A stretch of 64,000 nt of DNA from Spirochaetia bacterium (lineage in GTDB: Bacteria; Spirochaetota; Spirochaetia; CAKZLE01), in NCBI GenBank assembly GCA_963677595.1, contig OY782041.1, positions 1,632,001 to 1,696,000 on the forward strand, read 5' to 3'. Positions within the stretch are counted from its first letter, which is position 1; each line of letters begins with the position of its first letter. This document shows positions 50,093 to 64,000 of this stretch, in pieces. The notes under the pieces were generated by a model. That model worked only from the letters and a program-made list of their open reading frames with translations, was not told the origin of the DNA and searched no databases. Both the position numbers and the translations under genes were made by a program.

Positions 50093-50164
50093 GGGCGATT
50101 AACTCAGTGGGAGAGTGCTACCTTGACATGGTAGAAGTCACAAGTTCAAATCTTGTATCGCCCA
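50093..50164 (+). tRNA. tRNA-Val(GAC)
   Basis: Acceptor GGGCGAT/ATCGCCC, anticodon arm CTACC-TTGACAT-GGTAG, T-loop GTTCAAATC; CCA not encoded. Confidence 0.95.
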
Positions 50165-50617: not shown

Positions 50618-50868
50618 ATGGTTGATTTATGCTCTTTTCCATCACTTCCAAGTTATCAGGATTACTATGAAATAACTTATAAGGAACTTGATTCCCGAAT
50701 AAAGTACTTAGAGAATAGCTTAGAAAACATGCCCAAAACAGCTGAGGAACGAGCAAATCTAGGTGTTGCATATTTCTTTTTGATTGCGGTTATCGTATCT
50801 CTAGCCTTCATAGTGAATCTGGGTTTAGGTGTTCTTGTTTTAGTGGTTGGTATTGTTGTTTTTATTGA
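50618..50868 (+). pseudogene. Small membrane protein gene interrupted by IS200
   Basis: Two hydrophobic segments run into the IS left-end hairpin; frame can resume at 51430-51472. Confidence 0.45.
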
Positions 50869-51431
50869 GTCTTGGAAAACCACCGCCTATGGCGGTGGTC
50901 ATGGAATGAAGGCTACGCCGTAAGAAAAGTGTGATATGATAAGGCATGTCCAAGTGGAAGAAACAGTCGCATGTAGTATATCAGTGTATTTACCATATCG
51001 TATGGTGTCCAAAGTACCGGTTTCGGGTACTGAAAGGTGCTATAGAGAGTTATGTAGAACACCGGATACGAGAACTGTGTGAATGGAAGCAGATAGAGAT
51101 ATTGGAACTGAACGTGATGGAAGATCACGTACATATGGTGGTAATCGTACCACCAAAAATATCGTTATCAGAAATGATGGGCATGCTGAAAGGGAAAACA
51201 GCAATCAGCTTGTTTAAGAGTTTTCCAAAGTTTAAAGAGAAGCCGTATTGGGGAAACCACTTCTGGAGTCGCGGGTATGCTGTTACGACGCTCGGGTTGG
51301 ATGAAGATAAGATACGACGATATATGAAGTATCAAGAAGAGAATGAGCGACTCGAAGAAGCTCAGCAGGAAGAATTCGGCCTCTTTTAGAGGCCTAATAC
51401 AAGCCACCTCCTCTGGGGGTGGTTGTTGACT
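50869..51431 (+). mobile_element. IS200-type element (tnpA only)
   Basis: Subterminal hairpins at 50879-50899 and 51403-51423; no tnpB; ends approximate. Confidence 0.8.
50946..51389 (+). CDS. tnpA: IS200/IS605 Y1 transposase
   Basis: YHIVWCPKYR, DHVH (HUH), LKG, FWSRGY, catalytic Y...Q. Confidence 0.95.
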   Translation: MSKWKKQSHVVYQCIYHIVWCPKYRFRVLKGAIESYVEHRIRELCEWKQIEILELNVMEDHVHMVVIVPPKISLSEMMGMLKGKTAISLFKSFPKFKEKPYWGNHFWSRGYAVTTLGLDEDKIRRYMKYQEENERLEEAQQEEFGLF

Positions 51432-51696
51432 GCTACAAGAAGCATGCAATAATGTTCAAGGAACAGTTTTAAATCCCACATTCCTCACTTTCATGACGCA
51501 CACATAGCAGGATTTTCCATTTCAGGAAAGGATTGAGACTACGAAGGGCTATTCATCCTTACCGATCCTCCACACGGCATAAAAATCGGCAAATCCGCCT
51601 GGTTGCTACCCCGTCTGAACAGACATGCTGATGATCAGGACAGTAACCAGCCTTCTCATAGGTTCTGAGGATCAGACGCAGGTACACCTACGAAGT

Positions 51697-52512
51697 TCAT
51701 GCATGCAGAGAGGTCAGGACACACCTCACCCCCTTGTCGTAGAATACGCGTTCATCAAGACCCAATGCAGACAGGAAGGCCAACTGACGGGAAGAGAGCG
51801 GATTTACCAGCACCGCTTCTGCTCCCATCTCTGCCGCCATGATACCGCCAAACACGGTACTCATCATGAATGAAGTCGGCTTTGCCGTCGGTTTGTTGTC
51901 CCAGCCTGGTACCGTAGTACCTTCCTTCTGGAGATACCGCCGCATCTGCCGCTCCATCAACCGCCAGACCATCAGGGCGATCACGAGAATCATCCCCAAT
52001 GCATCTATGCGGGAAGGGGTTTTCAGAAACAGGTCATTGACTACCAGGGGATCCTTGAGGAATGAAAAATCACTCTCGATCCCATACTGGCCTTTGTACG
52101 TACGCAGTACCGATGCGGCATCAAGCGATGCAACAGCAACATTGGTAAGCAGCACAAAACATCCTGCCTGCTCTCTGAGCACCTGCAGCTTGTCCGACTT
52201 TTCGGTGATCTCCCAGTTCAACTCATACCGCAGATCTACAGGCGGCGGACCCTCCTTCGGGGGACGTCCACGACGCCGAACCGCCACTTCTTGGATCGTA
52301 ACCGTTAACGAGTGCAGCGGGGAAGAGACCGCAGCGAGGTTGGCAGCAGCAACCTGCGCATCTTCGCTGCAGTAATACTGTCGCTGAACTTTCTTCAATT
52401 TCCCGTTCAGCTCCTTCAACGATTGCTCAATCGCTTTGTCAATCTTCTTCTGCCTTCGCTTATCATGGGAACTCGAATGTATCACGACCCCGCGATAGGG
52501 CTTTTCATACAA
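51697..52512 (-). pseudogene. 3' part of the outer IS1634 transposase
   Basis: Matches the C-terminal half of 52735-54438. Confidence 0.9.
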
Positions 52513-52734
52513 CCCACATTCCTCACTTTCATGACGCACACATAGCAGGATTTTCCATTTCAGGAAAGGATTGAGACTACGAAGGGCTATTCATCCTTAC
52601 CGATCCTCCACACGGCATAAAAATCGGCAAATCCGCCTGGTTGCTACCCCGTCTGAACAGACATGCTGATGATCAGGACAGTAACCAGCCTTCTCATAGG
52701 TTCTGAGGATCAGACGCAGGTACACCTACGAAGT

Positions 52735-54438
52735 TCATGCATGCAGAGAGGTCAGGACACACCTCACCCCCTTGTCGTAGAATACGCGTTCATCAAGACC
52801 CAATGCAGACAGGAAGGCCAACTGACGGGAAGAGAGCGGATTTACCAGCACCGCTTCTGCTCCCATCTCTGCCGCCATGATACCGCCAAACACGGTACTC
52901 ATCATGAATGAAGTCGGCTTTGCCGTCGGTTTGTTGTCCCAGCCTGGTACCGTAGTACCTTCCTTCTGGAGATACCGCCGCATCTGCCGCTCCATCAACC
53001 GCCAGACCATCAGGGCGATCACGAGAATCATCCCCAATGCATCTATGCGGGAAGGGGTTTTCAGAAACAGGTCATTGACTACCAGGGGATCCTTGAGGAA
53101 TGAAAAATCACTCTCGATCCCATACTGGCCTTTGTACGTACGCAGTACCGATGCGGCATCAAGCGATGCAACAGCAACATTGGTAAGCAGCACAAAACAT
53201 CCTGCCTGCTCTCTGAGCACCTGCAGCTTGTCCGACTTTTCGGTGATCTCCCAGTTCAACTCATACCGCAGATCTACAGGCGGCGGACCCTCCTTCGGGG
53301 GACGTCCACGACGCCGAACCGCCACTTCTTGGATCGTAACCGTTAACGAGTGCAGCGGGGAAGAGACCGCAGCGAGGTTGGCAGCAGCAACCTGCGCATC
53401 TTCGCTGCAGTAATACTGTCGCTGAACTTTCTTCAATTTCCCGTTCAGCTCCTTCAACGATTGCTCAATCGCTTTGTCAATCTTCTTCTGCCTTCGCTTA
53501 TCATGGGAACTCGAATGTATCACGACCCCGCGATAGGGCTTTTCATACAACGTTACCGTCGTCTCGCACCCCTTATAGATCGCAGGAGGCCGGTTCTTCC
53601 CTGTTGGTGTTTCAGCCATCATGCCTATGGGACTCCAGCGACCCGCTCCGATCGCTTCCCTTATTGCCTGGTCACATGCGCCGTAGGTTGCCGGAAGACG
53701 GCTGATGAATGGCATCGACCCTAAAGCCTCCAGATTCTCCTGCGTCACCATGGCCGAGTCTGCAACATAGATACAGGCCCCATCTCCCAACCCATGTCGG
53801 GAGAGCAGTGTACTGATCCGTGTGAGCATCGCATTGTTAGACGTCTTGTCTGAGGAGTTCCCATTGAGGGTACTGCTGAAGATTGGGACCCCATGATCCA
53901 CGCACAGTAACTCCGTCATGAACTGCTTGAGATCCGGTCGGTGATCCTTGGAGTGCCCCAGGACGATCGAAGGCCCCGGGGTCTTTTCCTGCTCACTCCC
54001 CCGGTATTCCCCCCAGACACTCGTACTGGTAGTATCGTAACTGAGGGCATGCATATCCAGATCGAAGACCTGTGCTGCCCGAATCCCCAGTTCGGTCACA
54101 ATCTTCGATGGGCCGGCATCGAAGATCGCATCCAGGGACCGAGCTATGTTCGTGTCATTGAACAGATGCGGATCTACCTCCTGTCCCAGCAATAGGCTGC
54201 GGTTCTGCTGCTCGATGAACTGCTCGATCCGATACAGCGGCGACCGTCCATGCAGGACATCGAGCACCATCGTCTGTACCACGAGCCCCGGAGATAGCTG
54301 CATACGGGTCTCCACCGCCGCATCCACGATGTCTCTCAACCCGAGCATGCGGCAGTAGGCCGCCGCAATGGGCAGGTAGGAATGGGTATAGATTCTGGTA
54401 TGCTGAAACAGGGTTGAAAGGGGCGGAGTACTGGCCAT
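52735..54438 (-). CDS. IS1634 family DDE transposase
   Basis: YDTTS, GHSKDHRPDLKQ, GN.SD, VADS, YK.Q..IE..F..LK, FLK.P.RI. Confidence 0.92.
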   Translation of the reverse strand: MASTPPLSTLFQHTRIYTHSYLPIAAAYCRMLGLRDIVDAAVETRMQLSPGLVVQTMVLDVLHGRSPLYRIEQFIEQQNRSLLLGQEVDPHLFNDTNIARSLDAIFDAGPSKIVTELGIRAAQVFDLDMHALSYDTTSTSVWGEYRGSEQEKTPGPSIVLGHSKDHRPDLKQFMTELLCVDHGVPIFSSTLNGNSSDKTSNNAMLTRISTLLSRHGLGDGACIYVADSAMVTQENLEALGSMPFISRLPATYGACDQAIREAIGAGRWSPIGMMAETPTGKNRPPAIYKGCETTVTLYEKPYRGVVIHSSSHDKRRQKKIDKAIEQSLKELNGKLKKVQRQYYCSEDAQVAAANLAAVSSPLHSLTVTIQEVAVRRRGRPPKEGPPPVDLRYELNWEITEKSDKLQVLREQAGCFVLLTNVAVASLDAASVLRTYKGQYGIESDFSFLKDPLVVNDLFLKTPSRIDALGMILVIALMVWRLMERQMRRYLQKEGTTVPGWDNKPTAKPTSFMMSTVFGGIMAAEMGAEAVLVNPLSSRQLAFLSALGLDERVFYDKGVRCVLTSLHA

Positions 54439-54469
54439 CGGTATCCTCCTGTAGCGGTCGTGGAAACAG

Positions 54470-54528
54470 GACTTGACTGATCACTGAACCTACTGTATTA
54501 TACAGTAGGACAAGAGAGGAGTCAAGTC
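54470..54528. promoter_or_regulatory. Palindromic bidirectional promoter (second copy at 55887-55945)
   Basis: Plus strand TTGACT-N17-TATTAT, minus strand TTGACT-N17-TATAAT, centred on CCTACTGTAT-T-ATACAGTAGG. Confidence 0.75.
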
Positions 54529-54891
54529 ATGACCACCGAGACGGCACAGAAGCGCCTTCAGGTACTTCGCCGCAAACAGCAGGAACTCGCCAAGGAACTG
54601 AGCACGATCGAATTTATCTGGTCAGGATCCATCTCCAAACGGTTTCTTACCTGCGGGAACCCCTCGTGCAAGTGTCATACAGACACTGAGGCCAAGCATG
54701 GACCGTATTACTATTGGACGACCAAAAAGGGCGGGAAGACCGTAGCCAGGAAGCTCACAGAGCAGCAGGCTGAGGTCCTCCAACCATGGATTGAGAACAG
54801 GAGAACCCTGGAGAAGACGATGAATGCCATGAAGAAGCTCTCTCAGGATGCGTATGAAGCCATTTTGGTCCTCTTGGACGATGAAGGGTAG
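54529..54891 (+). CDS. DUF6788-like small zinc-finger protein carried by the IS
   Basis: GS......CG...C.C......HGPY..W...GK; RBS GAGGAG. Confidence 0.8.
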   Translation: MTTETAQKRLQVLRRKQQELAKELSTIEFIWSGSISKRFLTCGNPSCKCHTDTEAKHGPYYYWTTKKGGKTVARKLTEQQAEVLQPWIENRRTLEKTMNAMKKLSQDAYEAILVLLDDEG

Positions 54892-54961
54892 CGCTTTTTA
54901 AACCGATTTTAGCCCGAAATTAAATACCCGTTTTTTGCTGAGAAATAGTGAGGAATGTGGG

Positions 54962-55855
54962 ATACAACGTTACCGTCGTCTCGCACCCCTTATAGATCGC
55001 AGGAGGCCGGTTCTTCCCTGTTGGTGTTTCAGCCATCATGCCTATGGGACTCCAGCGACCCGCTCCGATCGCTTCCCTTATTGCCTGGTCACATGCGCCG
55101 TAGGTTGCCGGAAGACGGCTGATGAATGGCATCGACCCTAAAGCCTCCAGATTCTCCTGCGTCACCATGGCCGAGTCTGCAACATAGATACAGGCCCCAT
55201 CTCCCAACCCATGTCGGGAGAGCAGTGTACTGATCCGTGTGAGCATCGCATTGTTAGACGTCTTGTCTGAGGAGTTCCCATTGAGGGTACTGCTGAAGAT
55301 TGGGACCCCATGATCCACGCACAGTAACTCCGTCATGAACTGCTTGAGATCCGGTCGGTGATCCTTGGAGTGCCCCAGGACGATCGAAGGCCCCGGGGTC
55401 TTTTCCTGCTCACTCCCCCGGTATTCCCCCCAGACACTCGTACTGGTAGTATCGTAACTGAGGGCATGCATATCCAGATCGAAGACCTGTGCTGCCCGAA
55501 TCCCCAGTTCGGTCACAATCTTCGATGGGCCGGCATCGAAGATCGCATCCAGGGACCGAGCTATGTTCGTGTCATTGAACAGATGCGGATCTACCTCCTG
55601 TCCCAGCAATAGGCTGCGGTTCTGCTGCTCGATGAACTGCTCGATCCGATACAGCGGCGACCGTCCATGCAGGACATCGAGCACCATCGTCTGTACCACG
55701 AGCCCCGGAGATAGCTGCATACGGGTCTCCACCGCCGCATCCACGATGTCTCTCAACCCGAGCATGCGGCAGTAGGCCGCCGCAATGGGCAGGTAGGAAT
55801 GGGTATAGATTCTGGTATGCTGAAACAGGGTTGAAAGGGGCGGAGTACTGGCCAT
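54962..55855 (-). pseudogene. 5' part of the outer IS1634 transposase
   Basis: Matches the N-terminal half of 52735-54438, truncated at the inner IR. Confidence 0.9.
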
Positions 55856-55945
55856 CGGTATCCTCCTGTAGCGGTCGTGGAAACAGGACTTGACTGATCA
55901 CTGAACCTACTGTATTATACAGTAGGACAAGAGAGGAGTCAAGTC

Positions 55946-56308
55946 ATGACCACCGAGACGGCACAGAAGCGCCTTCAGGTACTTCGCCGCAAACAGCAGG
56001 AACTCGCCAAGGAACTGAGCACGATCGAATTTATCTGGTCAGGATCCATCTCCAAACGGTTTCTTACCTGCGGGAACCCCTCGTGCAAGTGTCATACAGA
56101 CACTGAGGCCAAGCATGGACCGTATTACTATTGGACGACCAAAAAGGGCGGGAAGACCGTAGCCAGGAAGCTCACAGAGCAGCAGGCTGAGGTCCTCCAA
56201 CCATGGATTGAGAACAGGAGAACCCTGGAGAAGACGATGAATGCCATGAAGAAGCTCTCTCAGGATGCGTATGAAGCCATTTTGGTCCTCTTGGACGATG
56301 AAGGGTAG
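55946..56308 (+). CDS. DUF6788-like protein (second copy)
   Basis: Identical protein to 54529-54891. Confidence 0.8.
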   Translation: MTTETAQKRLQVLRRKQQELAKELSTIEFIWSGSISKRFLTCGNPSCKCHTDTEAKHGPYYYWTTKKGGKTVARKLTEQQAEVLQPWIENRRTLEKTMNAMKKLSQDAYEAILVLLDDEG

Positions 56309-56445
56309 CGCTTTTTAAACCGATTTTAGCCCGAAATTAAATACCCGTTTTTTGCTGAGAAATAGTGAGGAATGTGGGTTAAATGTAGGTCCATATTTGA
56401 AAAATTTGCATTATCAGAATTTAAAGTTTGTAAAAGGAGTAAACA

Positions 56446-57723
56446 ATGGAGTTCTATCTGGAAATAATAAATGACAAAGTAATCGAGGTTTATTCTGAAG
56501 AAAATGGTGATGAACTTATTAAAATAACTTGTGAATCTGTTGATGAGTTTTATGAAAAAGTTAGTGGGTATGAAATTAATGAAGATTTTGATGAAAAAAT
56601 TAAAGAATTTTTTGAAGATTCAAGAAATAATGAATCATTAAACCGTTTTCATATAAAGCATTGGGTAAGTAATCGATCATTTGGAGAGTTAATCGATATG
56701 TATGAGCATGATGAAATTATTAAACCTGAAATGCAAAGAGATTTTGTATGGACTTCTCTTAAGTGTTCAAGGTTAATTGAATCTATTATTCTAGGTTTAC
56801 CTATACCTCCATTGTTTTTAATGGAAGTAGATAAAAATCAGTATGAACTTGTAGATGGATATCAAAGATTAACAACAGTGTTTAACTATGTGAAGGGTAA
56901 TCCTTGGGGAGGAAAAAAAGATAAACGAAATGTCAAGGCTAAATTATCTTCAAAGGTTTCTGTTGAATTGCAAAAAAAGGCTTTTGAAGATCTAGAACCT
57001 GAACATCAAAAAGCTATTAGAAGAAGTACTATTCCATTGATAGAATTTAAGCAGTTAGAACCAAATAACCTGTCATCTAAATACCTCATTTTTGAAAGAA
57101 TAAACACTGGGTCTGATAAGTTAAATCAAATGCAGATTAGGAAATCATTAGCATATGGAGAACTAATAAAAAGTCTATATTCAGTTGCAAATAAAAGTAG
57201 CGAATTTACTAAGTTGTTTTCTGCTGGAAACCTGAAAAAGGATGTACACGTAGAAGCTTATTTAAGAATATTATGTATGACTGATATTTATTATAAAAAA
57301 TATAAACCAGAGAAATATGGTATCAATTATGTACTCAATGATTATTGCGAAGTTTTTAGAAAAAAGGAGATTACAGATGAAAGAAAGGCTAAGATTAAAG
57401 AGGCTCTAACTTTTGCGTATTCTGTTTTTAATAAACCTGAAGAAATATTTAGGAAAGTTGATATGATTAAAGGACAAAGAAGATTTATCGGGAACTTAAA
57501 TATTAGCATTTTAGAGGCTTTTATTGGAGTATATATTGAAGAAAAAAACAAAATCACAATTAGAGTGGAAGAAATTTACATGAATTATATTTCTATTATG
57601 AGTGGGATTTCAACAAAAGAAAAGCAAGAAGGGGAAGAGAACTTTTTTACAACTCATACAGGAACTGAGAAAGCAATTACCAAAAGGTATGATTCAATAA
57701 AAAAAATCTTTGGGATTAATTAA
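56446..57723 (+). CDS. DUF262 (GmrS-like) domain protein
   Basis: P..QR.FVW, LIESI..G.PIP, VDG.QRLT, IFERIN.G; RBS AAGGAG. Confidence 0.9.
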   Translation: MEFYLEIINDKVIEVYSEENGDELIKITCESVDEFYEKVSGYEINEDFDEKIKEFFEDSRNNESLNRFHIKHWVSNRSFGELIDMYEHDEIIKPEMQRDFVWTSLKCSRLIESIILGLPIPPLFLMEVDKNQYELVDGYQRLTTVFNYVKGNPWGGKKDKRNVKAKLSSKVSVELQKKAFEDLEPEHQKAIRRSTIPLIEFKQLEPNNLSSKYLIFERINTGSDKLNQMQIRKSLAYGELIKSLYSVANKSSEFTKLFSAGNLKKDVHVEAYLRILCMTDIYYKKYKPEKYGINYVLNDYCEVFRKKEITDERKAKIKEALTFAYSVFNKPEEIFRKVDMIKGQRRFIGNLNISILEAFIGVYIEEKNKITIRVEEIYMNYISIMSGISTKEKQEGEENFFTTHTGTEKAITKRYDSIKKIFGIN

Positions 57724-58566
57724 TGGAGATATTTGAATTTGATTGTGATGTAAGATTTGAAGCTTTGTTAGATATTTATTCTCAAGTTAAGAAAATTAAA
57801 AATAGTAGGGCAGAAGATATTGCTCAATATAGAATACTTGCAGAAAACACTGAATTAGACCTACCAACTATACTAAACTGTTGTGATAATTATGAACGCT
57901 CTTTATTAATCGAATGCTATACTTTTGCTGAACAATTATTTAAAAATTTTTATTATGAATTATTGGATTTTGAAAGAAATAACAATAAGTATCTGAGATT
58001 GTTTATTCAAAGAAAAATTCCAAGGGATAAATTTTCTCCCGATGTTTTTTTTGCTAATATTGAAGGGTCAATAAGAAGCCACATTTTGCATGGATTTAAA
58101 TTCATTTTGAAAGATCAGAACCATGAAATAAAAGTTTATGATGAAATGATTAAATCTAGGCATCGATATGCACATAGTGGAGTTTATGATTTTGATTTTA
58201 ATAATTTTGAAGACGTAGTTAAAGTGTTAGATTATATTCGATTTGAGTTAGAACTAATAACAAATAAATGGAACAATGCAAATAGAGATGAATTTGGTAA
58301 AGACATAAAGGATCTAGTTCGATTACTAAATAAGTGTCCTGATGTAGAAGAAAAGTATATAAAGAATATACGTCCAAAATTAAAATGTATTAAGAGTGAA
58401 AGTATTGCATTTTTGAAGAGTGAGCATCAAACCGCATACACTGAAGACACAATCAAAGAGATGCTATAATCTGCGAGGTGAAGATACAGCCATTACCGTA
58501 TCCTGCCACACCTAGCAGGACACGAACCAATGGTTGGGACTATGGTGATGATCTTCTGGGAGCCTA

Positions 58567-60318
58567 CTATTCCCGCTGCTTCTTGACCGTAATGGTTTTC
58601 ACTGCCAATTCTTCTTTCAGGTCAAGCGGCAGATTCCATGGGAGGAAGGTTGTGAAATCTACCGCCTGTACTGGCAGATCGCGAATACGGGTTACCTGTT
58701 TGAGCAGGTAGTCCATATAGCCATACAGGTCCAGGTCCCAGAGATTAGCCGTCTGGATGATACTCTCCAGGGTTGCCAGCGCCTTCGCACCGGTAACCGA
58801 ACCGGCGAACAGGGAGTTCATGCGGACTGTTGAGAATGCTCTGATAATGCGCTCACTTCTCGAGTTGTCTGGATTCAGGTTTGCACATGCGAGATACGTC
58901 TGGAACAGTTGCTCATGGTTGAGGTAGTAGTTCATGCCATCCATGATATAGCTGTCATTGGTATGTAAATCATACCGTCCGGTAATCCAGGCGGAGAGTT
59001 TTTCAAACAGCGGCAGGGTATCAGTTTTTCGATCGTTGAGGAACTGCTGTTCACTGATACTCTGCTCATCCTGCCACCGGACGCGGTGAGCAGCATCGAC
59101 TTTGTAGATCTGCCCGATCAGTCGAAGAATTTTATTCAGCGTACTATGGCCGTCGGATCCGCTCTGGTACCCACCTGCCTTCTGTGCATCAACGAACCGC
59201 CTCCGAAGATGAGCGATACAGAGAGCCAGCGTATACTGGTAGTGTTGCTTCTCTGCCTGGTAGCCTGTATAGCAGTCTGCCTGCACAAACCCGTCGTATC
59301 CATCGACGATATCCTTGAACACATCACTTGACCGGGATCGGTCATATTGGAAGTAGGCAGCCGGCCGATCTGGTGTCGCACTGCAGATGACCCACAGCCA
59401 GGATTTCAGCTCATCAGCTCGATCCTTCTCATCAAGTACTTGCAGACGTGTTTCGTCAGCATTGATCGCAGGCTGCCTGAGAATCTCATTCTTGATGGCC
59501 GTAGCGATGGGCTCAAGCTCCATACCGGCACGCAGGTGCCAGTTCGAGAAGTTCTGCTCACTGAGTGCTACACCAAACTGTCTGAACTGTTTTGCGATTC
59601 GGGTCACTGACAGACCGTAGAAGAACTTGTCAACCAGAGAGGCAGCAATCAGACGGTCTCCCGCAAGACCTCCCGGGATAAACCGCTCAGGAGCCTTGGC
59701 AGTCATGATCATCCGGCGCTTCGCTCCCTGCCCGTCATAGGCCGTACCACAACCGGTACAATAGCCTTTGTGCTTGGTCTGTCGAATAATCTTCAGCCGT
59801 TCTTTGATGACGTCAATATGTTCGTGTACATCCTGATTCTCGATTTCCTGAATCTCACCACCGCAGATACTGCACAGCTTGTCAAGCTGGTATTCTCGCT
59901 GCTCCCGCGGGTAGGACGGATCGAACGTCTGCCGACCTCCGCCAATACCGGGTTTGCGGTGTTTCGGATGTCGGTTCCTCATCCGCGGCGGCTCTTGCTC
60001 CTGATCAACAGCCTGTTTTGCCTCTTCGACAATCTGCCGCTCCTCGTCATTGAGCTCACTCTCCGGCTTCTCAAGGAGTTCTACCGGGATGTTGAACAGC
60101 TTCCGATACTTCTCACTTGAGCTGCCGAACTTGAGAAACAGCTCAAGACGGAGCTTCTCCTTGCCTGAACGGACTACACGGGTGAGTACTTCGACATCTT
60201 CAGTCAATTCTGCAACCTGTGCATTCGCAGCTTTCAGCTCTTTCTCAGACCGGGCTTTTTCCTTCTTTAACTCTGAGACCTGCATCTTCAACAATGCAAT
60301 CTGTTCTTTGTCTGTCAT
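58567..60318 (-). CDS. tnpC: IS66 transposase TnpC
   Basis: Coiled coil, FG.SSEK, C..CG zinc finger, ADET..QVL, C.AH.RR.F, DN..SER, LPWN. Confidence 0.9.
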   Translation of the reverse strand: MTDKEQIALLKMQVSELKKEKARSEKELKAANAQVAELTEDVEVLTRVVRSGKEKLRLELFLKFGSSSEKYRKLFNIPVELLEKPESELNDEERQIVEEAKQAVDQEQEPPRMRNRHPKHRKPGIGGGRQTFDPSYPREQREYQLDKLCSICGGEIQEIENQDVHEHIDVIKERLKIIRQTKHKGYCTGCGTAYDGQGAKRRMIMTAKAPERFIPGGLAGDRLIAASLVDKFFYGLSVTRIAKQFRQFGVALSEQNFSNWHLRAGMELEPIATAIKNEILRQPAINADETRLQVLDEKDRADELKSWLWVICSATPDRPAAYFQYDRSRSSDVFKDIVDGYDGFVQADCYTGYQAEKQHYQYTLALCIAHLRRRFVDAQKAGGYQSGSDGHSTLNKILRLIGQIYKVDAAHRVRWQDEQSISEQQFLNDRKTDTLPLFEKLSAWITGRYDLHTNDSYIMDGMNYYLNHEQLFQTYLACANLNPDNSRSERIIRAFSTVRMNSLFAGSVTGAKALATLESIIQTANLWDLDLYGYMDYLLKQVTRIRDLPVQAVDFTTFLPWNLPLDLKEELAVKTITVKKQRE

Positions 60319-60538
60319 GCTGACAAGCATACCATAATTGCACAGAAAGAACAACCTAATTGATTATATTGCAACTAGTTGCATAGGTCTGCAACACGGA
60401 CAATGTCAGAGGTCTGCCTTGCAGGAACCCCTGGTGCGCCCTGTTTTTGCCCCAGCTGATCCCAGACGTGTATACCCTCTCGTTTCTTCGTACCACAGGC
60501 GTTCAGAAGCGTCCAAAATTTTGTGTTCTTTTTTCCTG

Positions 60539-60907
60539 TCACAGATGCAGGGCTATCCTGGTCACCTGGTTCCGTGCCTGCAGCTGATCAAGGGAGACTG
60601 GATCGCTTATGAGTCGGCGGAGCTCATCCGCAGTTATTGCGGCTGCTGCATTCCGGTCTTTCGGCCAGGGGTACCGCCCATACCGGATAACCCTCGTACA
60701 CATCCAGCACCCGGCTCCTTCACTGTATACGATCCGGATCTGCTTCCTGCTCGTTGAACAGAATACAAAGATCGACTGTTCATCCAGAGGCAGGTCCATT
60801 GCCCCCAGCACCAGGGAGATCATGCCCCGCACACCCCGACGAAAGTCGGTAGAGCCTACCCGTAGAAAGATCTTCTTTCCTTCCAGTGATGTGTCGAATG
60901 GCACCAT
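60539..60907 (-). CDS. tnpB: IS66 accessory protein TnpB
   Basis: TDFRRG..G, FVFC...R..I, G...WP. Confidence 0.88.
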   Translation of the reverse strand: MVPFDTSLEGKKIFLRVGSTDFRRGVRGMISLVLGAMDLPLDEQSIFVFCSTSRKQIRIVYSEGAGCWMCTRVIRYGRYPWPKDRNAAAAITADELRRLISDPVSLDQLQARNQVTRIALHL

Positions 60908-61269
60908 TACAGGACCCCCATAAGATACGTTACTTTCGTAACATTCTCACGTGTGCAGGCCAACGCCTGCAGAGTGCAGCAGCATGCATATACCTGTTGG
61001 TGAAACCGGACCATCTCTTCAAGCGATAACCGTTGACACTGCTCATCTGGCTGTGTTCCTTCAATGTGGTAACAAACTATGCCATGCTCGGCCACCTCAT
61101 GTGCCTCATCTCGGTTGAGGGCTTTCATCCAACGCTTGAGCGTTGTTATTGTCACGGTAACCTCCGGCCTTTTGCAGTAGGTGAATACCGTGAGTCCGGA
61201 TTGCAGATAATCTTCGATAATCTGTTCTCGCTCCGCGGTCGTGTATGGTTCTATTCGTCTCATATTCAT
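60907..61269 (-). CDS. tnpA: IS66 accessory protein TnpA (HTH)
   Basis: SGLT...YC....V...TL..W; first gene of the element. Confidence 0.75.
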   Translation of the reverse strand: MNMRRIEPYTTAEREQIIEDYLQSGLTVFTYCKRPEVTVTITTLKRWMKALNRDEAHEVAEHGIVCYHIEGTQPDEQCQRLSLEEMVRFHQQVYACCCTLQALACTRENVTKVTYLMGVL

Positions 61270-61542
61270 CCTCCGCTGTTACGTTAGAGGATTCTCAACT
61301 CCCTGCATACTGTGTATGCGGTTTGATGCTCACTTTGAAGAAATACAATGATATGGTTCAAGCAGTCCTAATATTTGAGGATTTACTTAATGGAATATCC
61401 ATTTTATCAACAATGGATTTAAGGTCTCATAAACCATTTTATGAAAAAGTATTAGAAGTAAAGCAAAATGATTTACTTTTTTCAAAAAAGTAAGTATTAA
61501 CTGGTTTTCATAAATATGGCTTATATAAAGGATAATTGTAAA

Positions 61543-64000
61543 TTGAAATTTATAAATAATGGGCCAGATATTCCAAATAATCTATTTGAGGCGCATAAAG
61601 AGGGACGGGTAGTTTTCTTCTGTGGGGCGGGTATATCTTTCAATGCTGGGTTAAAAGGCTTTGGGTGGCTTGTTGATAAATTGCTTGATAAATTAGGAAA
61701 GGATGCAACTCCTTTAATCAAAAGGGCGTTAAAAGATAAACGGTATGATATAGCTATTGATCTATTAGAAAAAGATTATCCTGGTGGTCGGTTTTCAGTT
61801 AGAAAAGAATTAATCAAAATATTAAAGCCAGACATAAAGAAAAAAGGATCTTTCGAAACACATAAAGCTTTACTTGATCTTTCATCAGATCAAGACGGGC
61901 AGATTCGATTGGTTACAACAAATTTTGATCAATTATTTGAAATATCTGCCAAAGATCGCTCTCCAGAGGTTAAGAAATTTAATGCCCCATATTTACCAAT
62001 TCCTAAAAAAAATAAATGGGATGGATTGGTATATTTACATGGATTATTACCAAATACTGCAAATGAAAAAGACTTAAATCAGTTAGTCTTATCAAGTGGT
62101 GATTTTGGTCTAGCCTATTTAACAGAAAGATGGGCAGCTCGGTTTGTAACTGAGCTATTCAGGAATTATATAGTCTGTTTTGTAGGATACAGTATTGATG
62201 ATCCAATTATCAGATATATGATGGACGCTTTAGCTGCTGATCGTATGATGGGTGAAAAGCCTTTGGATTCATATGCTTTTTGCGCCTATAAAACTGGCAA
62301 AGAAAATTCAGTAAAAAATGAATGGGAAGCAAAAGGAGTAACGCCAATTCTATATGAATGGTCTAGAAGGTTTCCTAGGCATAACCTCTTACATAAAACT
62401 TTAAAAGCATGGGCATATATGCATAAACAAGGGCTAAAAGGACTAGAAGAAATAATACTTAATAGTGTATTAATCAAACCAACTTTGAGTACTGTTCAAG
62501 ATGATTCAATAAATCGTTTCCTATGGGCTATATCAGAAAAAACAGGGAAGATGGCGAAACTTTTTGCTGAATTTAATCCTGTACCCGCATTTGAATGGTT
62601 TGATGAATTAATCAAACCAGCATATGGAGTTAGTGATTTTATAAGATTTGGGATCTCTCCAAATGGGAAAACTGATTCAGATTTCCAGTTTAATATATTT
62701 AGACGACCTGCTCCAACGAACCTTGCAGATTATCCATCTTTTATGGGGCTAACATATAATTATGAGTATATAAATAATTGGGATGAAGTGCTGAAACACA
62801 TATCACGTTGGTTATTAAGATATATAAATAATCCTAAAGTCATTCTTTGGCTAACTAGTCAAAATGGAGAACTACATCCACAGTTTATTAGACTACTTGA
62901 AAGTAAATTGCATAAATTAGCAAAAATGGAAAAAGAGGGGAGGACCAAGGAACTGGAAGAACTTCGTAAAAATGCTCCAGAATCCATTCCTACCAACTTC
63001 ATGATTCGTTTATGGCGATTATTCATAGATGGTCAGATTCATATGAAAAAATCACGTATTTCAGAATACGATCTCTCAGAGAGATTAAAAAATGAAGAAT
63101 TCTCTTTTGATTTACATGTGCAATTACGAAAGTTCCTTTCGCCAAAAATAAAACTTGATAGACAATATTCATTGTCAGAAAAACCGACTAAATCCTTACC
63201 TCCAATTCGTTATGAGTTAAGTTTGGATTGTGGGTATTTATATAATACTTTGCATCATAATAAAGCAGATTGGTGGCAAAAAATATTGCCATTATTCTTT
63301 TTTGATGCACAACAACTATTAATCGATGCTATGAATTTACATAAGTATGTTAATAACAATGAAGTATATGATTTTTTAAATTTTGATATGCCTTCTATAA
63401 GTGAACATAGCCAAAATCAAAATAGGCATAATTGGATTCTATTAATTGAAATTGTTAGAGATGCCTGGCTAATTATCAAGGAACAAGATCCAATAAAAGC
63501 AAAGAAAATCGCAGTAGATTGGTTTGACTCTACATTTGTAGTCTTTAAAAGGCTTGCCTTATTTGCTGCTAGTTTTGATGATATCATACCTTCAGAGTTA
63601 TGGGTTGAGTGGGTATTGGCTGATAACTCATTTGCCTTATGGAATTTTCAAACAGGTAGAGAGTTATATAGGTTATTAGTTTTACAGGGTTGTGCTCTAA
63701 CAAATAAATCACAAAATTTACTAGAAAAGGGAATTTGTAGAGGTCCTCACCAGAATCAAGATGGGTCAGATGAGACTGATAAACAAAAGTATAGAGATAA
63801 TGAGATTTGGCTTCGTTTAGCAAAACTAAGATTATCAAAAAAGCTTGGAGAAGATGCAGAAAGTCTATTTCAAAACTTAACAGAAAAATATCCTAACAGG
63901 AAACTTGCCAGTGATGAGAGTGATGAATTTGTTATCTGGAGATCCTTCTCAACACACGTTAGAAGAAATGACTCAAGTTTTGATGAGTTGCCAGAAGACC
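61543..64000 (+). CDS. SIR2-domain anti-phage protein, Dsr1-like (partial, runs off window)
   Basis: Hand translation: MKFINNGPDIP..AHKEGRVVFFCGAGIS, LVTTNFD, YLHG, DFGLAYLTERWAARFV, FVGYS; in-frame ATG also at 61516. Confidence 0.88.
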   Translation, partial: MKFINNGPDIPNNLFEAHKEGRVVFFCGAGISFNAGLKGFGWLVDKLLDKLGKDATPLIKRALKDKRYDIAIDLLEKDYPGGRFSVRKELIKILKPDIKKKGSFETHKALLDLSSDQDGQIRLVTTNFDQLFEISAKDRSPEVKKFNAPYLPIPKKNKWDGLVYLHGLLPNTANEKDLNQLVLSSGDFGLAYLTERWAARFVTELFRNYIVCFVGYSIDDPIIRYMMDALAADRMMGEKPLDSYAFCAYKTGKENSVKNEWEAKGVTPILYEWSRRFPRHNLLHKTLKAWAYMHKQGLKGLEEIILNSVLIKPTLSTVQDDSINRFLWAISEKTGKMAKLFAEFNPVPAFEWFDELIKPAYGVSDFIRFGISPNGKTDSDFQFNIFRRPAPTNLADYPSFMGLTYNYEYINNWDEVLKHISRWLLRYINNPKVILWLTSQNGELHPQFIRLLESKLHKLAKMEKEGRTKELEELRKNAPESIPTNFMIRLWRLFIDGQIHMKKSRISEYDLSERLKNEEFSFDLHVQLRKFLSPKIKLDRQYSLSEKPTKSLPPIRYELSLDCGYLYNTLHHNKADWWQKILPLFFFDAQQLLIDAMNLHKYVNNNEVYDFLNFDMPSISEHSQNQNRHNWILLIEIVRDAWLIIKEQDPIKAKKIAVDWFDSTFVVFKRLALFAASFDDIIPSELWVEWVLADNSFALWNFQTGRELYRLLVLQGCALTNKSQNLLEKGICRGPHQNQDGSDETDKQKYRDNEIWLRLAKLRLSKKLGEDAESLFQNLTEKYPNRKLASDESDEFVIWRSFSTHVRRNDSSFDELPED

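Follow-up and report, generated by a model that had tools for sequence, protein, structure and literature searches.

Three defence-type genes, all AT-rich and all on the + strand, lie together in a 64,000-nucleotide stretch of a Spirochaetia bacterium genome (G000:C1:1632001-1696000; hereafter the window, whose numbering is used unless a position carries a prefix): a DUF262 gene, a HEPN gene and a SIR2 gene of the Dsr1 type, with an insertion sequence (IS) of the IS66 family interposed (Table 1). Their GC contents of 28.5%, 26.5% and 32.9%, respectively, compare with 54.6% for the genome. A sequence-only reading of the window had described the three as tightly packed once IS66 is removed, with a 1-nucleotide (nt) DUF262/HEPN overlap (TAATG) and a SIR2 gene starting 22–49 nt after the HEPN stop; all coordinates and gaps hold against the open reading frames (ORFs), the shorter gap applying if translation begins at ATG 61516 and the longer if at TTG 61543. 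That reading had left two arrangements standing, a DUF262–HEPN module beside an independent Dsr1 or one co-transcribed three-gene system. We consider it highly probable that the region holds two independent defence modules, both likely acquired horizontally: a DUF262–HEPN pair that IS66 has split, so that it is probably inactive, and a stand-alone, intact Dsr1, with DUF262 the likely sensor and HEPN a predicted RNase in intact relatives.

Table 1. Features of the DUF262–HEPN–Dsr1 region (window positions) and of two related loci.
Feature	Position	Strand	Basis
DUF262 (ParB-like, GmrSD-N) gene, 425 residues, intact	56446..57723	+	Pfam, PADLOC, motifs, model
HEPN gene, 5′ part, codons 1–232: entire HEPN domain and first half of C-terminal helical bundle	57723..58419	+	ORF, family alignment, model
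IS66, 2,914 bp, inside HEPN gene: tnpA 60907-61269, tnpB 60539-60907, tnpC 58567-60354	58420..61333	-	Pfam, NCBIfam, repeats
Second 8-bp duplicate and HEPN gene, 3′ part: last 50 codons, bundle end, stop at 61493	61334..61493	+	IS-skipped reading, family profile
Dsr1 sirtuin gene, intact, runs on to 65340	61516..64000 in window	+	NCBIfam, PADLOC, SIR2 motifs
IS1634 nested in identical IS1634 (inner copy 52513-54961)	51475..56378	-	NF033559, sequence match
Promoter-like site TTGACT-16-AATAAT with TG; hint only	51426..51453	+	promoter scan
tRNA-Val(GAC), left edge of low-GC, IS-rich stretch	50093..50164	+	tRNA call
DUF262–HEPN pair within type I restriction–modification operons	L014:6900-15300, L039:4200-13100 (approximate)		hsd neighbours, two different positions

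The DUF262 protein has a single Pfam match, PF03235 (GmrSD_N; E 5.8e-26), and carries QRDFVW (residue 97), DGYQR (137) and FERIN (216), all three nearly invariant across 39 aligned relatives; QRxxxW, DGxQR and FxxxN are described as DUF262 motifs in passages of PMC12065111. Among PADLOC models it scores on NsnA (9e-53, 177.9 bits, nearly full length) and on PD-T4-2_A (2e-30, 104 bits, where the authentic PD-T4-2 A protein reaches 538 bits). Its predicted structure (predicted local distance difference test (pLDDT) score 85.7) comprises an acidic β-β-β-α-α N-terminal domain of about 60 residues, a ParB-like core and a helical C-terminal domain; BrxU, ParB/Noc and SspE head the fold matches from Foldseek against PDB, all of them weaker than E 0.001. 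Searches returned 327 relatives at E ≤ 1e-20, the best 120 of which share 47–57% identity over almost the whole length, and those with names belong to Bacillota, Fusobacteriota and Mycoplasmatota. A scan of viral contigs with DUF262 gave no match.

The second gene is interrupted by a complete IS66, recognized by its tnpA-tnpB-tnpC order (Pfam and NCBIfam IS66 families), a perfect 22-bp terminal inverted repeat and an 8-bp duplication, TTTGAAGA, at 58412-58419 and 61334-61341; an identical second copy at G000:C1:1892661-1895574, with a duplication of its own, sets the ends of the element. As it stands, the HEPN frame terminates at 58469 after 16 IS-derived residues. Excision in silico of the element and one duplicate, a check proposed in the sequence-only reading, restores an in-frame gene of 849 nt encoding 282 residues. 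The 50 residues behind the element fit positions 237–278 of a profile of the family from which they had been left out (E 9.5e-6, in a single-sequence search space) and the IS-derived tail has no score on the same profile, which places IS66 inside this gene. The cut, at codon 233, removes the last two helices of the C-terminal bundle and leaves the catalytic domain whole. The restored protein shares 31% identity with an intact protein of Enterococcus mundtii (residues 3–262) and 42% with one from Clostridium polyendosporum over 269 residues. Contigs of run X1 contain the IS66 junctions; the joined, element-free form was not seen in them, which does not show that it is absent. With IS66 in the HEPN gene and a nested IS1634 ending 67 bp ahead of the DUF262 start, the pair in this strain is probably inactive.

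The HEPN piece in the window has no match in Pfam, PADLOC or NCBIfam; in the proposed PADLOC check, matches fell on DUF262 (NsnA, PD-T4-2_A) and on the third gene (Dsr1). A profile search with an intact homolog retrieved 101 HEPN-family representatives at E ≤ 0.001, and an alignment of 85 members shows K74, R146 and H151 to be invariant, as part of E70-x3-K74 and R146-H-R-Y-A-H151 (RHRYAH) in the window protein. Pfam PF18735 (RiboL-PSP-HEPN) is matched by 23 of the 85 at E ≤ 0.01 (best 6.8e-9), while the member at locus L001 scores 27.8 bits against a cut-off of 28.4. Residues 2–183 of a predicted model of an intact homolog (pLDDT 97.4) align to HEPN structures, best to 4nqf_B (Z 9.0, root-mean-square deviation 3.1, 125 residues aligned) and further to 1jog, 8xdj, 7ae2, 5yep, 1ufb and 3o10. 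Z values of about 9 are modest for helical proteins, and Foldseek against PDB matched neither the HEPN nor the DUF262 model at E ≤ 0.001; the HEPN call combines fold, motif and Pfam. The earlier domain calls of DUF262, HEPN and Dsr1-type SIR2 were right by Pfam, PADLOC, NCBIfam and the HEPN structure match. The C-terminal bundle (181–273) matched generic four-helix bundles (Z up to 9.0) by structure and syntaxin-like or designed coiled coils by sequence, which is uninformative as to its identity. In the Atlas, the family forms an unnamed 285-residue cluster that occurs most often in Bacillota and has RiboL-PSP-HEPN clusters among its weaker neighbours. Scans of 400 further genomes from the phylum of the window (where a single match of 6.5e-4, in the bundle region, was spurious), of 398 other scored genomes of the class of G427 and of phages did not find the family.

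The two genes form a conserved cassette. DUF262 alignment scans yielded 35 genome and 79 metagenome loci, from which 96 close ones were counted and 18 distant ones (L022-L035, L107, L109, L110, L113) excluded. A HEPN ORF lies directly downstream of DUF262 in 81 of the 96; 11 of the remainder break off too early, L103, L105 and L108 retain decayed fragments of the two genes, and at the exception, L096, DUF262 is truncated and another ORF comes next. When the 85 DUF262 proteins of at least 300 residues are grouped at 70% identity, the partner is present in 30 of 31 groups, and RHx[YF]AH is retained in all 74 HEPN partners of at least 250 residues. Among relatives the pair is often decayed or split (L103, L105, L108, L020, L078 and L095), in some cases perhaps through assembly errors.

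Among described systems the closest in design is PD-T4-2 of E. coli ECOR65 (Vassallo et al. 2022), a name absent from the sequence-only reading: a DUF262 and HEPN system validated against T4, with an H127A mutant of the B protein (passages of PMC9519451). An authentic copy (L142) encodes proteins of 375 and 167 residues, places H127 in RNAAAH and matches the PADLOC models, its B protein matching all three. Both systems consist of a DUF262 gene followed by a coupled HEPN gene (with a 4-nt gap in L142); PF18735 is matched by PD-T4-2 B and by part of the HEPN family described here, Rx4H occurs in both, and the A proteins are 27.6% identical over 210 residues (E 2e-21). On the other hand, the window A protein has 425 residues with a folded N-terminal domain, its B protein has 282 with a C-terminal helical bundle and RHxYAH, and the relatives are mainly Bacillota. 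A quick tree sets those relatives apart at a branch whose support is 99; in it, the long branches of the two short-form rows may join falsely. None of the 85 HEPN family members matches PADLOC PD-T4-2_B at E ≤ 0.01; because it fails this B-model test, the window pair, as judged from sequence, shares the PD-T4-2 design and HEPN clade but is not a filed member. We therefore assign it to a distinct long clade of that design, marked at the sequence level by an extra N-terminal domain on DUF262 and an extra helical bundle on HEPN.

Other systems share parts of this architecture. Menshen (NsnABC; Li et al. 2025) resembles the window gene in that NsnA is its best-scoring model and in that the three motifs and a small N-terminal domain occur as in type II NsnA; Menshen, however, requires NsnB and NsnC (passages of PMC12065111), and the NsnB ATPase and NsnC are absent here, where the gene that follows DUF262 in most close loci encodes HEPN. 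GmrSD, BrxU and SspE, of the type IV restriction type (DUF262 plus DUF1524), have the ParB-like DUF262 domain in common with the pair, which lacks their His-Me/HNH nuclease domain and has its effector as a separate HEPN gene; mutants of DGQQR abolish defence in a GmrSD-like protein, according to part of a preprint (10.1101/2024.01.29.577857). PrrC of EcoprrI is an NTPase-regulated HEPN, as is predicted for the pair, and some relatives of the pair lie, as PrrC does, inside a type I restriction–modification (R–M) operon; PrrC, though, is one polypeptide with an ABC ATPase (passages of PMC3710099), whereas here the NTPase is ParB-like and separately encoded, and most DUF262–HEPN copies lie outside R–M operons. 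Passages of PMC3710099 noted ParB-linked RiboL-PSP-HEPN operons and HEPN–R–M linkage in 2013, and passages of PMC10952713 list PD-T4-2 under DUF262 and PF18735 without a mechanism for HEPN. In the literature searched we found no mechanism for PD-T4-2-type systems and no account of the long DUF262–HEPN clade or of a DUF262–HEPN–Dsr1 system; the supplements of PMC12065111, PMC3710099 and preprints lay outside its scope and may list members.

The third gene ends beyond the window, and its product has 1274 residues counted from ATG 61516. TTG 61543 is the likelier start, because homologs begin at that residue and AAGGA lies 10 nt ahead of it. The Dsr1 system is reportedly due to Gao et al. 2020 and Garb et al. 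The window protein exceeds the curated cut-off of the Dsr1 equivalog NF041818 at full length (1462.6 bits against 1400, residues 11–1273), its in-window portion matches the PADLOC Dsr1 model at 2.3e-276, and it contains the SIR2 motifs GAGIS, TTNFD and YLHG; it differs from other Dsr1 only in being AT-rich and diverged, at 38–48% identity. Relatives number 1304 at E ≤ 1e-200, the named ones mostly Pseudomonadota. A single-sequence scan of viral contigs found nothing, and an alignment scan of them did find loci. DSR1 was cloned as a single gene, causing transient NAD+ depletion and blocking phi29 without growth arrest, according to part of a preprint (10.1101/2021.12.14.472415).

Dsr1 and the pair do not travel together in the loci that we examined. 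Dsr1 is near none of 97 pair loci (the 96 close ones and L141; tblastn, E ≤ 1); beyond the HEPN stop, the 81 loci hold at least 300 bases in 73 cases, 1 kb in 64 and 4 kb in 43. In the reverse direction, three profiles (DUF262 and both HEPN types) found no DUF262 or HEPN near any of 40 Dsr1 loci (17 groups at 90%), and recovered all of the positive controls L141-L143. These 40, comprising 11 of the 12 full-length plasmid hits and 29 viral-contig loci, hold at least 1.3 kb upstream in 39 cases, and their varied neighbours are those of a single gene without a fixed partner. Dsr1 was also absent from all 21 genomes with the pair, a weak test given the rarity of Dsr1 and the incomplete state of some of these genomes; the model used on them does detect the Dsr1 of the window's genome, G000. 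The counts, together with the different phyla to which the named relatives of DUF262 and of Dsr1 belong, support Dsr1 as an independent neighbour of the DUF262–HEPN pair, not a system partner. Neighbourhood conservation, which the sequence-only reading had offered as a check, thus bears out DUF262 with HEPN and fails for Dsr1 with the pair in close loci, favouring the first of the two arrangements over the second.

Several points weigh against this reading. At one distant locus with a short-form pair, L026, a Dsr1-like gene lies 4.8 kb downstream, and the second DUF262–HEPN pair of the window's own genome is followed by a gene for SEFIR, which is TIR-like. The 40 Dsr1 loci do not include the neighbourhood of the closest relative, P0224 (48%). 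No promoter-like signal above chance was found ahead of Dsr1, and with a gap of 22–49 nt it probably shared a transcript with the pair until the IS inserted. The catalytic domain of the truncated HEPN is complete, which leaves its inactivity probable but unproven. Significant similarity to PD-T4-2B is lacking in the HEPN family (hhalign probability 0.1%), and the PD-T4-2 mechanism would be carried over by architecture only. The Dsr1-like and SEFIR neighbours, with the tight co-oriented packing and similar low GC, would suit a single system whose one sensor governs an RNase as well as an NADase. Yet short flanking gaps are common for the DUF262–HEPN cassette, so the gap to Dsr1 is not special, and the window's Dsr1 passes its single-gene family cut-off at full length; together with the linkage counts, this makes a three-gene system very improbable.

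By analogy with GmrSD, SspE and PD-T4-2, the most likely division of labour is that DUF262 senses and HEPN executes. Foreign DNA, incorrectly modified DNA or nucleotide levels would be sensed at the ParB-like NTPase site (DGxQR), and DUF262 would then switch on the translationally coupled HEPN protein, a predicted metal-independent RNase that would cut tRNA or mRNA and stop the phage from growing, the course inferred for PD-T4-2. Regulation may reside in the additional HEPN bundle and the additional DUF262 N-terminal domain. Dsr1 would, on its own, deplete NAD+ upon infection. The translational coupling of the two genes could also be that of a toxin–antitoxin-like selfish module, in which DUF262 restrains a HEPN toxin in the absence of a specific anti-phage trigger. 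HEPN toxins of toxin–antitoxin pairs do occur among the fold-search matches, and a disrupted HEPN beside an intact DUF262 is the order of loss expected if HEPN alone is toxic; a single disrupted copy cannot show that order, however, and in L020 it is DUF262 that is split while HEPN is intact. Conservation of the DUF262 NTPase motifs throughout the clade exceeds the need of a plain antitoxin, and PD-T4-2, of the same design, is validated as anti-phage (passages of PMC9519451). We regard a selfish module as distinctly unlikely and retain DUF262 as the probable sensor of an anti-phage HEPN effector.

The neighbours of the pair, labelled by Pfam on 68 of 121 first- and second-neighbour representatives, raise a further idea. 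An R–M gene directly adjoins the pair in 10 of the 31 groups (12 of 41 at 90%), often co-oriented and 1–21 nt away, and in two groups the pair sits inside a type I operon, as hsdR-pair-hsdS (L014) and hsdS-pair-hsdR (L039). The HEPN gene is carried by eight conjugative Enterococcus faecium plasmids, and on one of them (L141:503-6801) the pair follows an Eco57I-type R–M gene by 1 nt. HEPN–R–M linkage has been proposed as PrrC-like second-line defence (passages of PMC3710099). In that spirit, the long clade could be a two-component R–M guard that has yet to be named: a ParB-type NTPase, through its N-terminal sensor domain, would monitor the R–M complex or DNA methylation and, when a phage disables restriction, license a HEPN anticodon nuclease otherwise held by the C-terminal bundle. 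We think this unlikely, if less so than a selfish module. In 21 of the 31 groups no R–M gene is adjacent, nor is there one next to the pair in this window, and other neighbours include valS, thrS, guaA and murB, transposases and other defence-type genes. Several R–M types are represented (I, IIG, MutH-like with C5 methylase, N6/N4 methylase), a mixture more in keeping with a shared insertion hotspot than with a fixed partner, and the 10/31 adjacency is a raw count. MazG-like and Schlafen group 3 helicase genes also recur near the pair (L001:14397 onward, L018:7700-9946 and L104).

In this genome the pair lies in a low-GC, IS-rich stretch that follows a tRNA-Val gene. The nested IS1634, absent from the sequence-only reading, has outer halves identical to the inner copy (2449 of 2449 positions), 6-bp duplications at both nesting levels (TTAAAT for the outer) and an inner insertion in the outer copy's transposase gene; each copy has a divergent DUF6788 gene, and more copies occur elsewhere in the genome. 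Were the nest absent, 82 nt would separate the promoter-like site (10/12) from the DUF262 ATG. The right end of an IS200 copy supplies the first hexamer of this site, and the scan found 2 sites against 2.7 ± 1.8 in shuffled sequence; promoter scans near the DUF262 start were at chance level. That IS200-type element (50861-51431) encodes a 147-residue Y1 transposase and has a 97.5% identical copy elsewhere in the genome. A 101-residue ORF after tRNA-Val (50618-50923), with a hydrophobic C-terminal half and no Pfam match, stops inside its left end and is possibly truncated by it. Beyond the window (65469-67964, L144), an ISAzo13-family transposase with two other genomic copies follows Dsr1 and, with a further 412-residue reverse-strand ORF, closes the island. 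No att-like repeat of the tRNA-Val 3′ end was found downstream, and no empty site was seen in the same-genus genome G401, which shares the upstream operon and then diverges.

The second DUF262–HEPN pair of this genome (G000:C1:2390469-2393568; L143:5470-8569) is inserted after the terminase large subunit gene (gpA type) of a probable prophage. It comprises an intact short-form DUF262 (367 residues) and a RiboL-PSP-HEPN protein (158 residues, RNLIAH), followed by an overlapping bSEFIR gene of 509 residues, and its B protein does not match the PADLOC PD-T4-2_B models.

The region is thus largely explained, as a new long variant of the PD-T4-2 design beside an ordinary Dsr1. The long-clade HEPN partner is not recognized by PADLOC 2.0 or NCBIfam, so that the pair would be either overlooked or mistaken for a solitary NsnA. 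Being broken, the copy in the window lends itself poorly to testing; intact natural copies exist in culturable hosts, with the extra domains that may hold regulation, and those inside type I R–M operons make the guard idea testable. If true, such a guard would have arrived independently at the logic of PrrC, the ABC ATPase being replaced by one of the ParB type, and would be one that current defence-gene finders miss in streptococci, enterococci, clostridia and fusobacteria.

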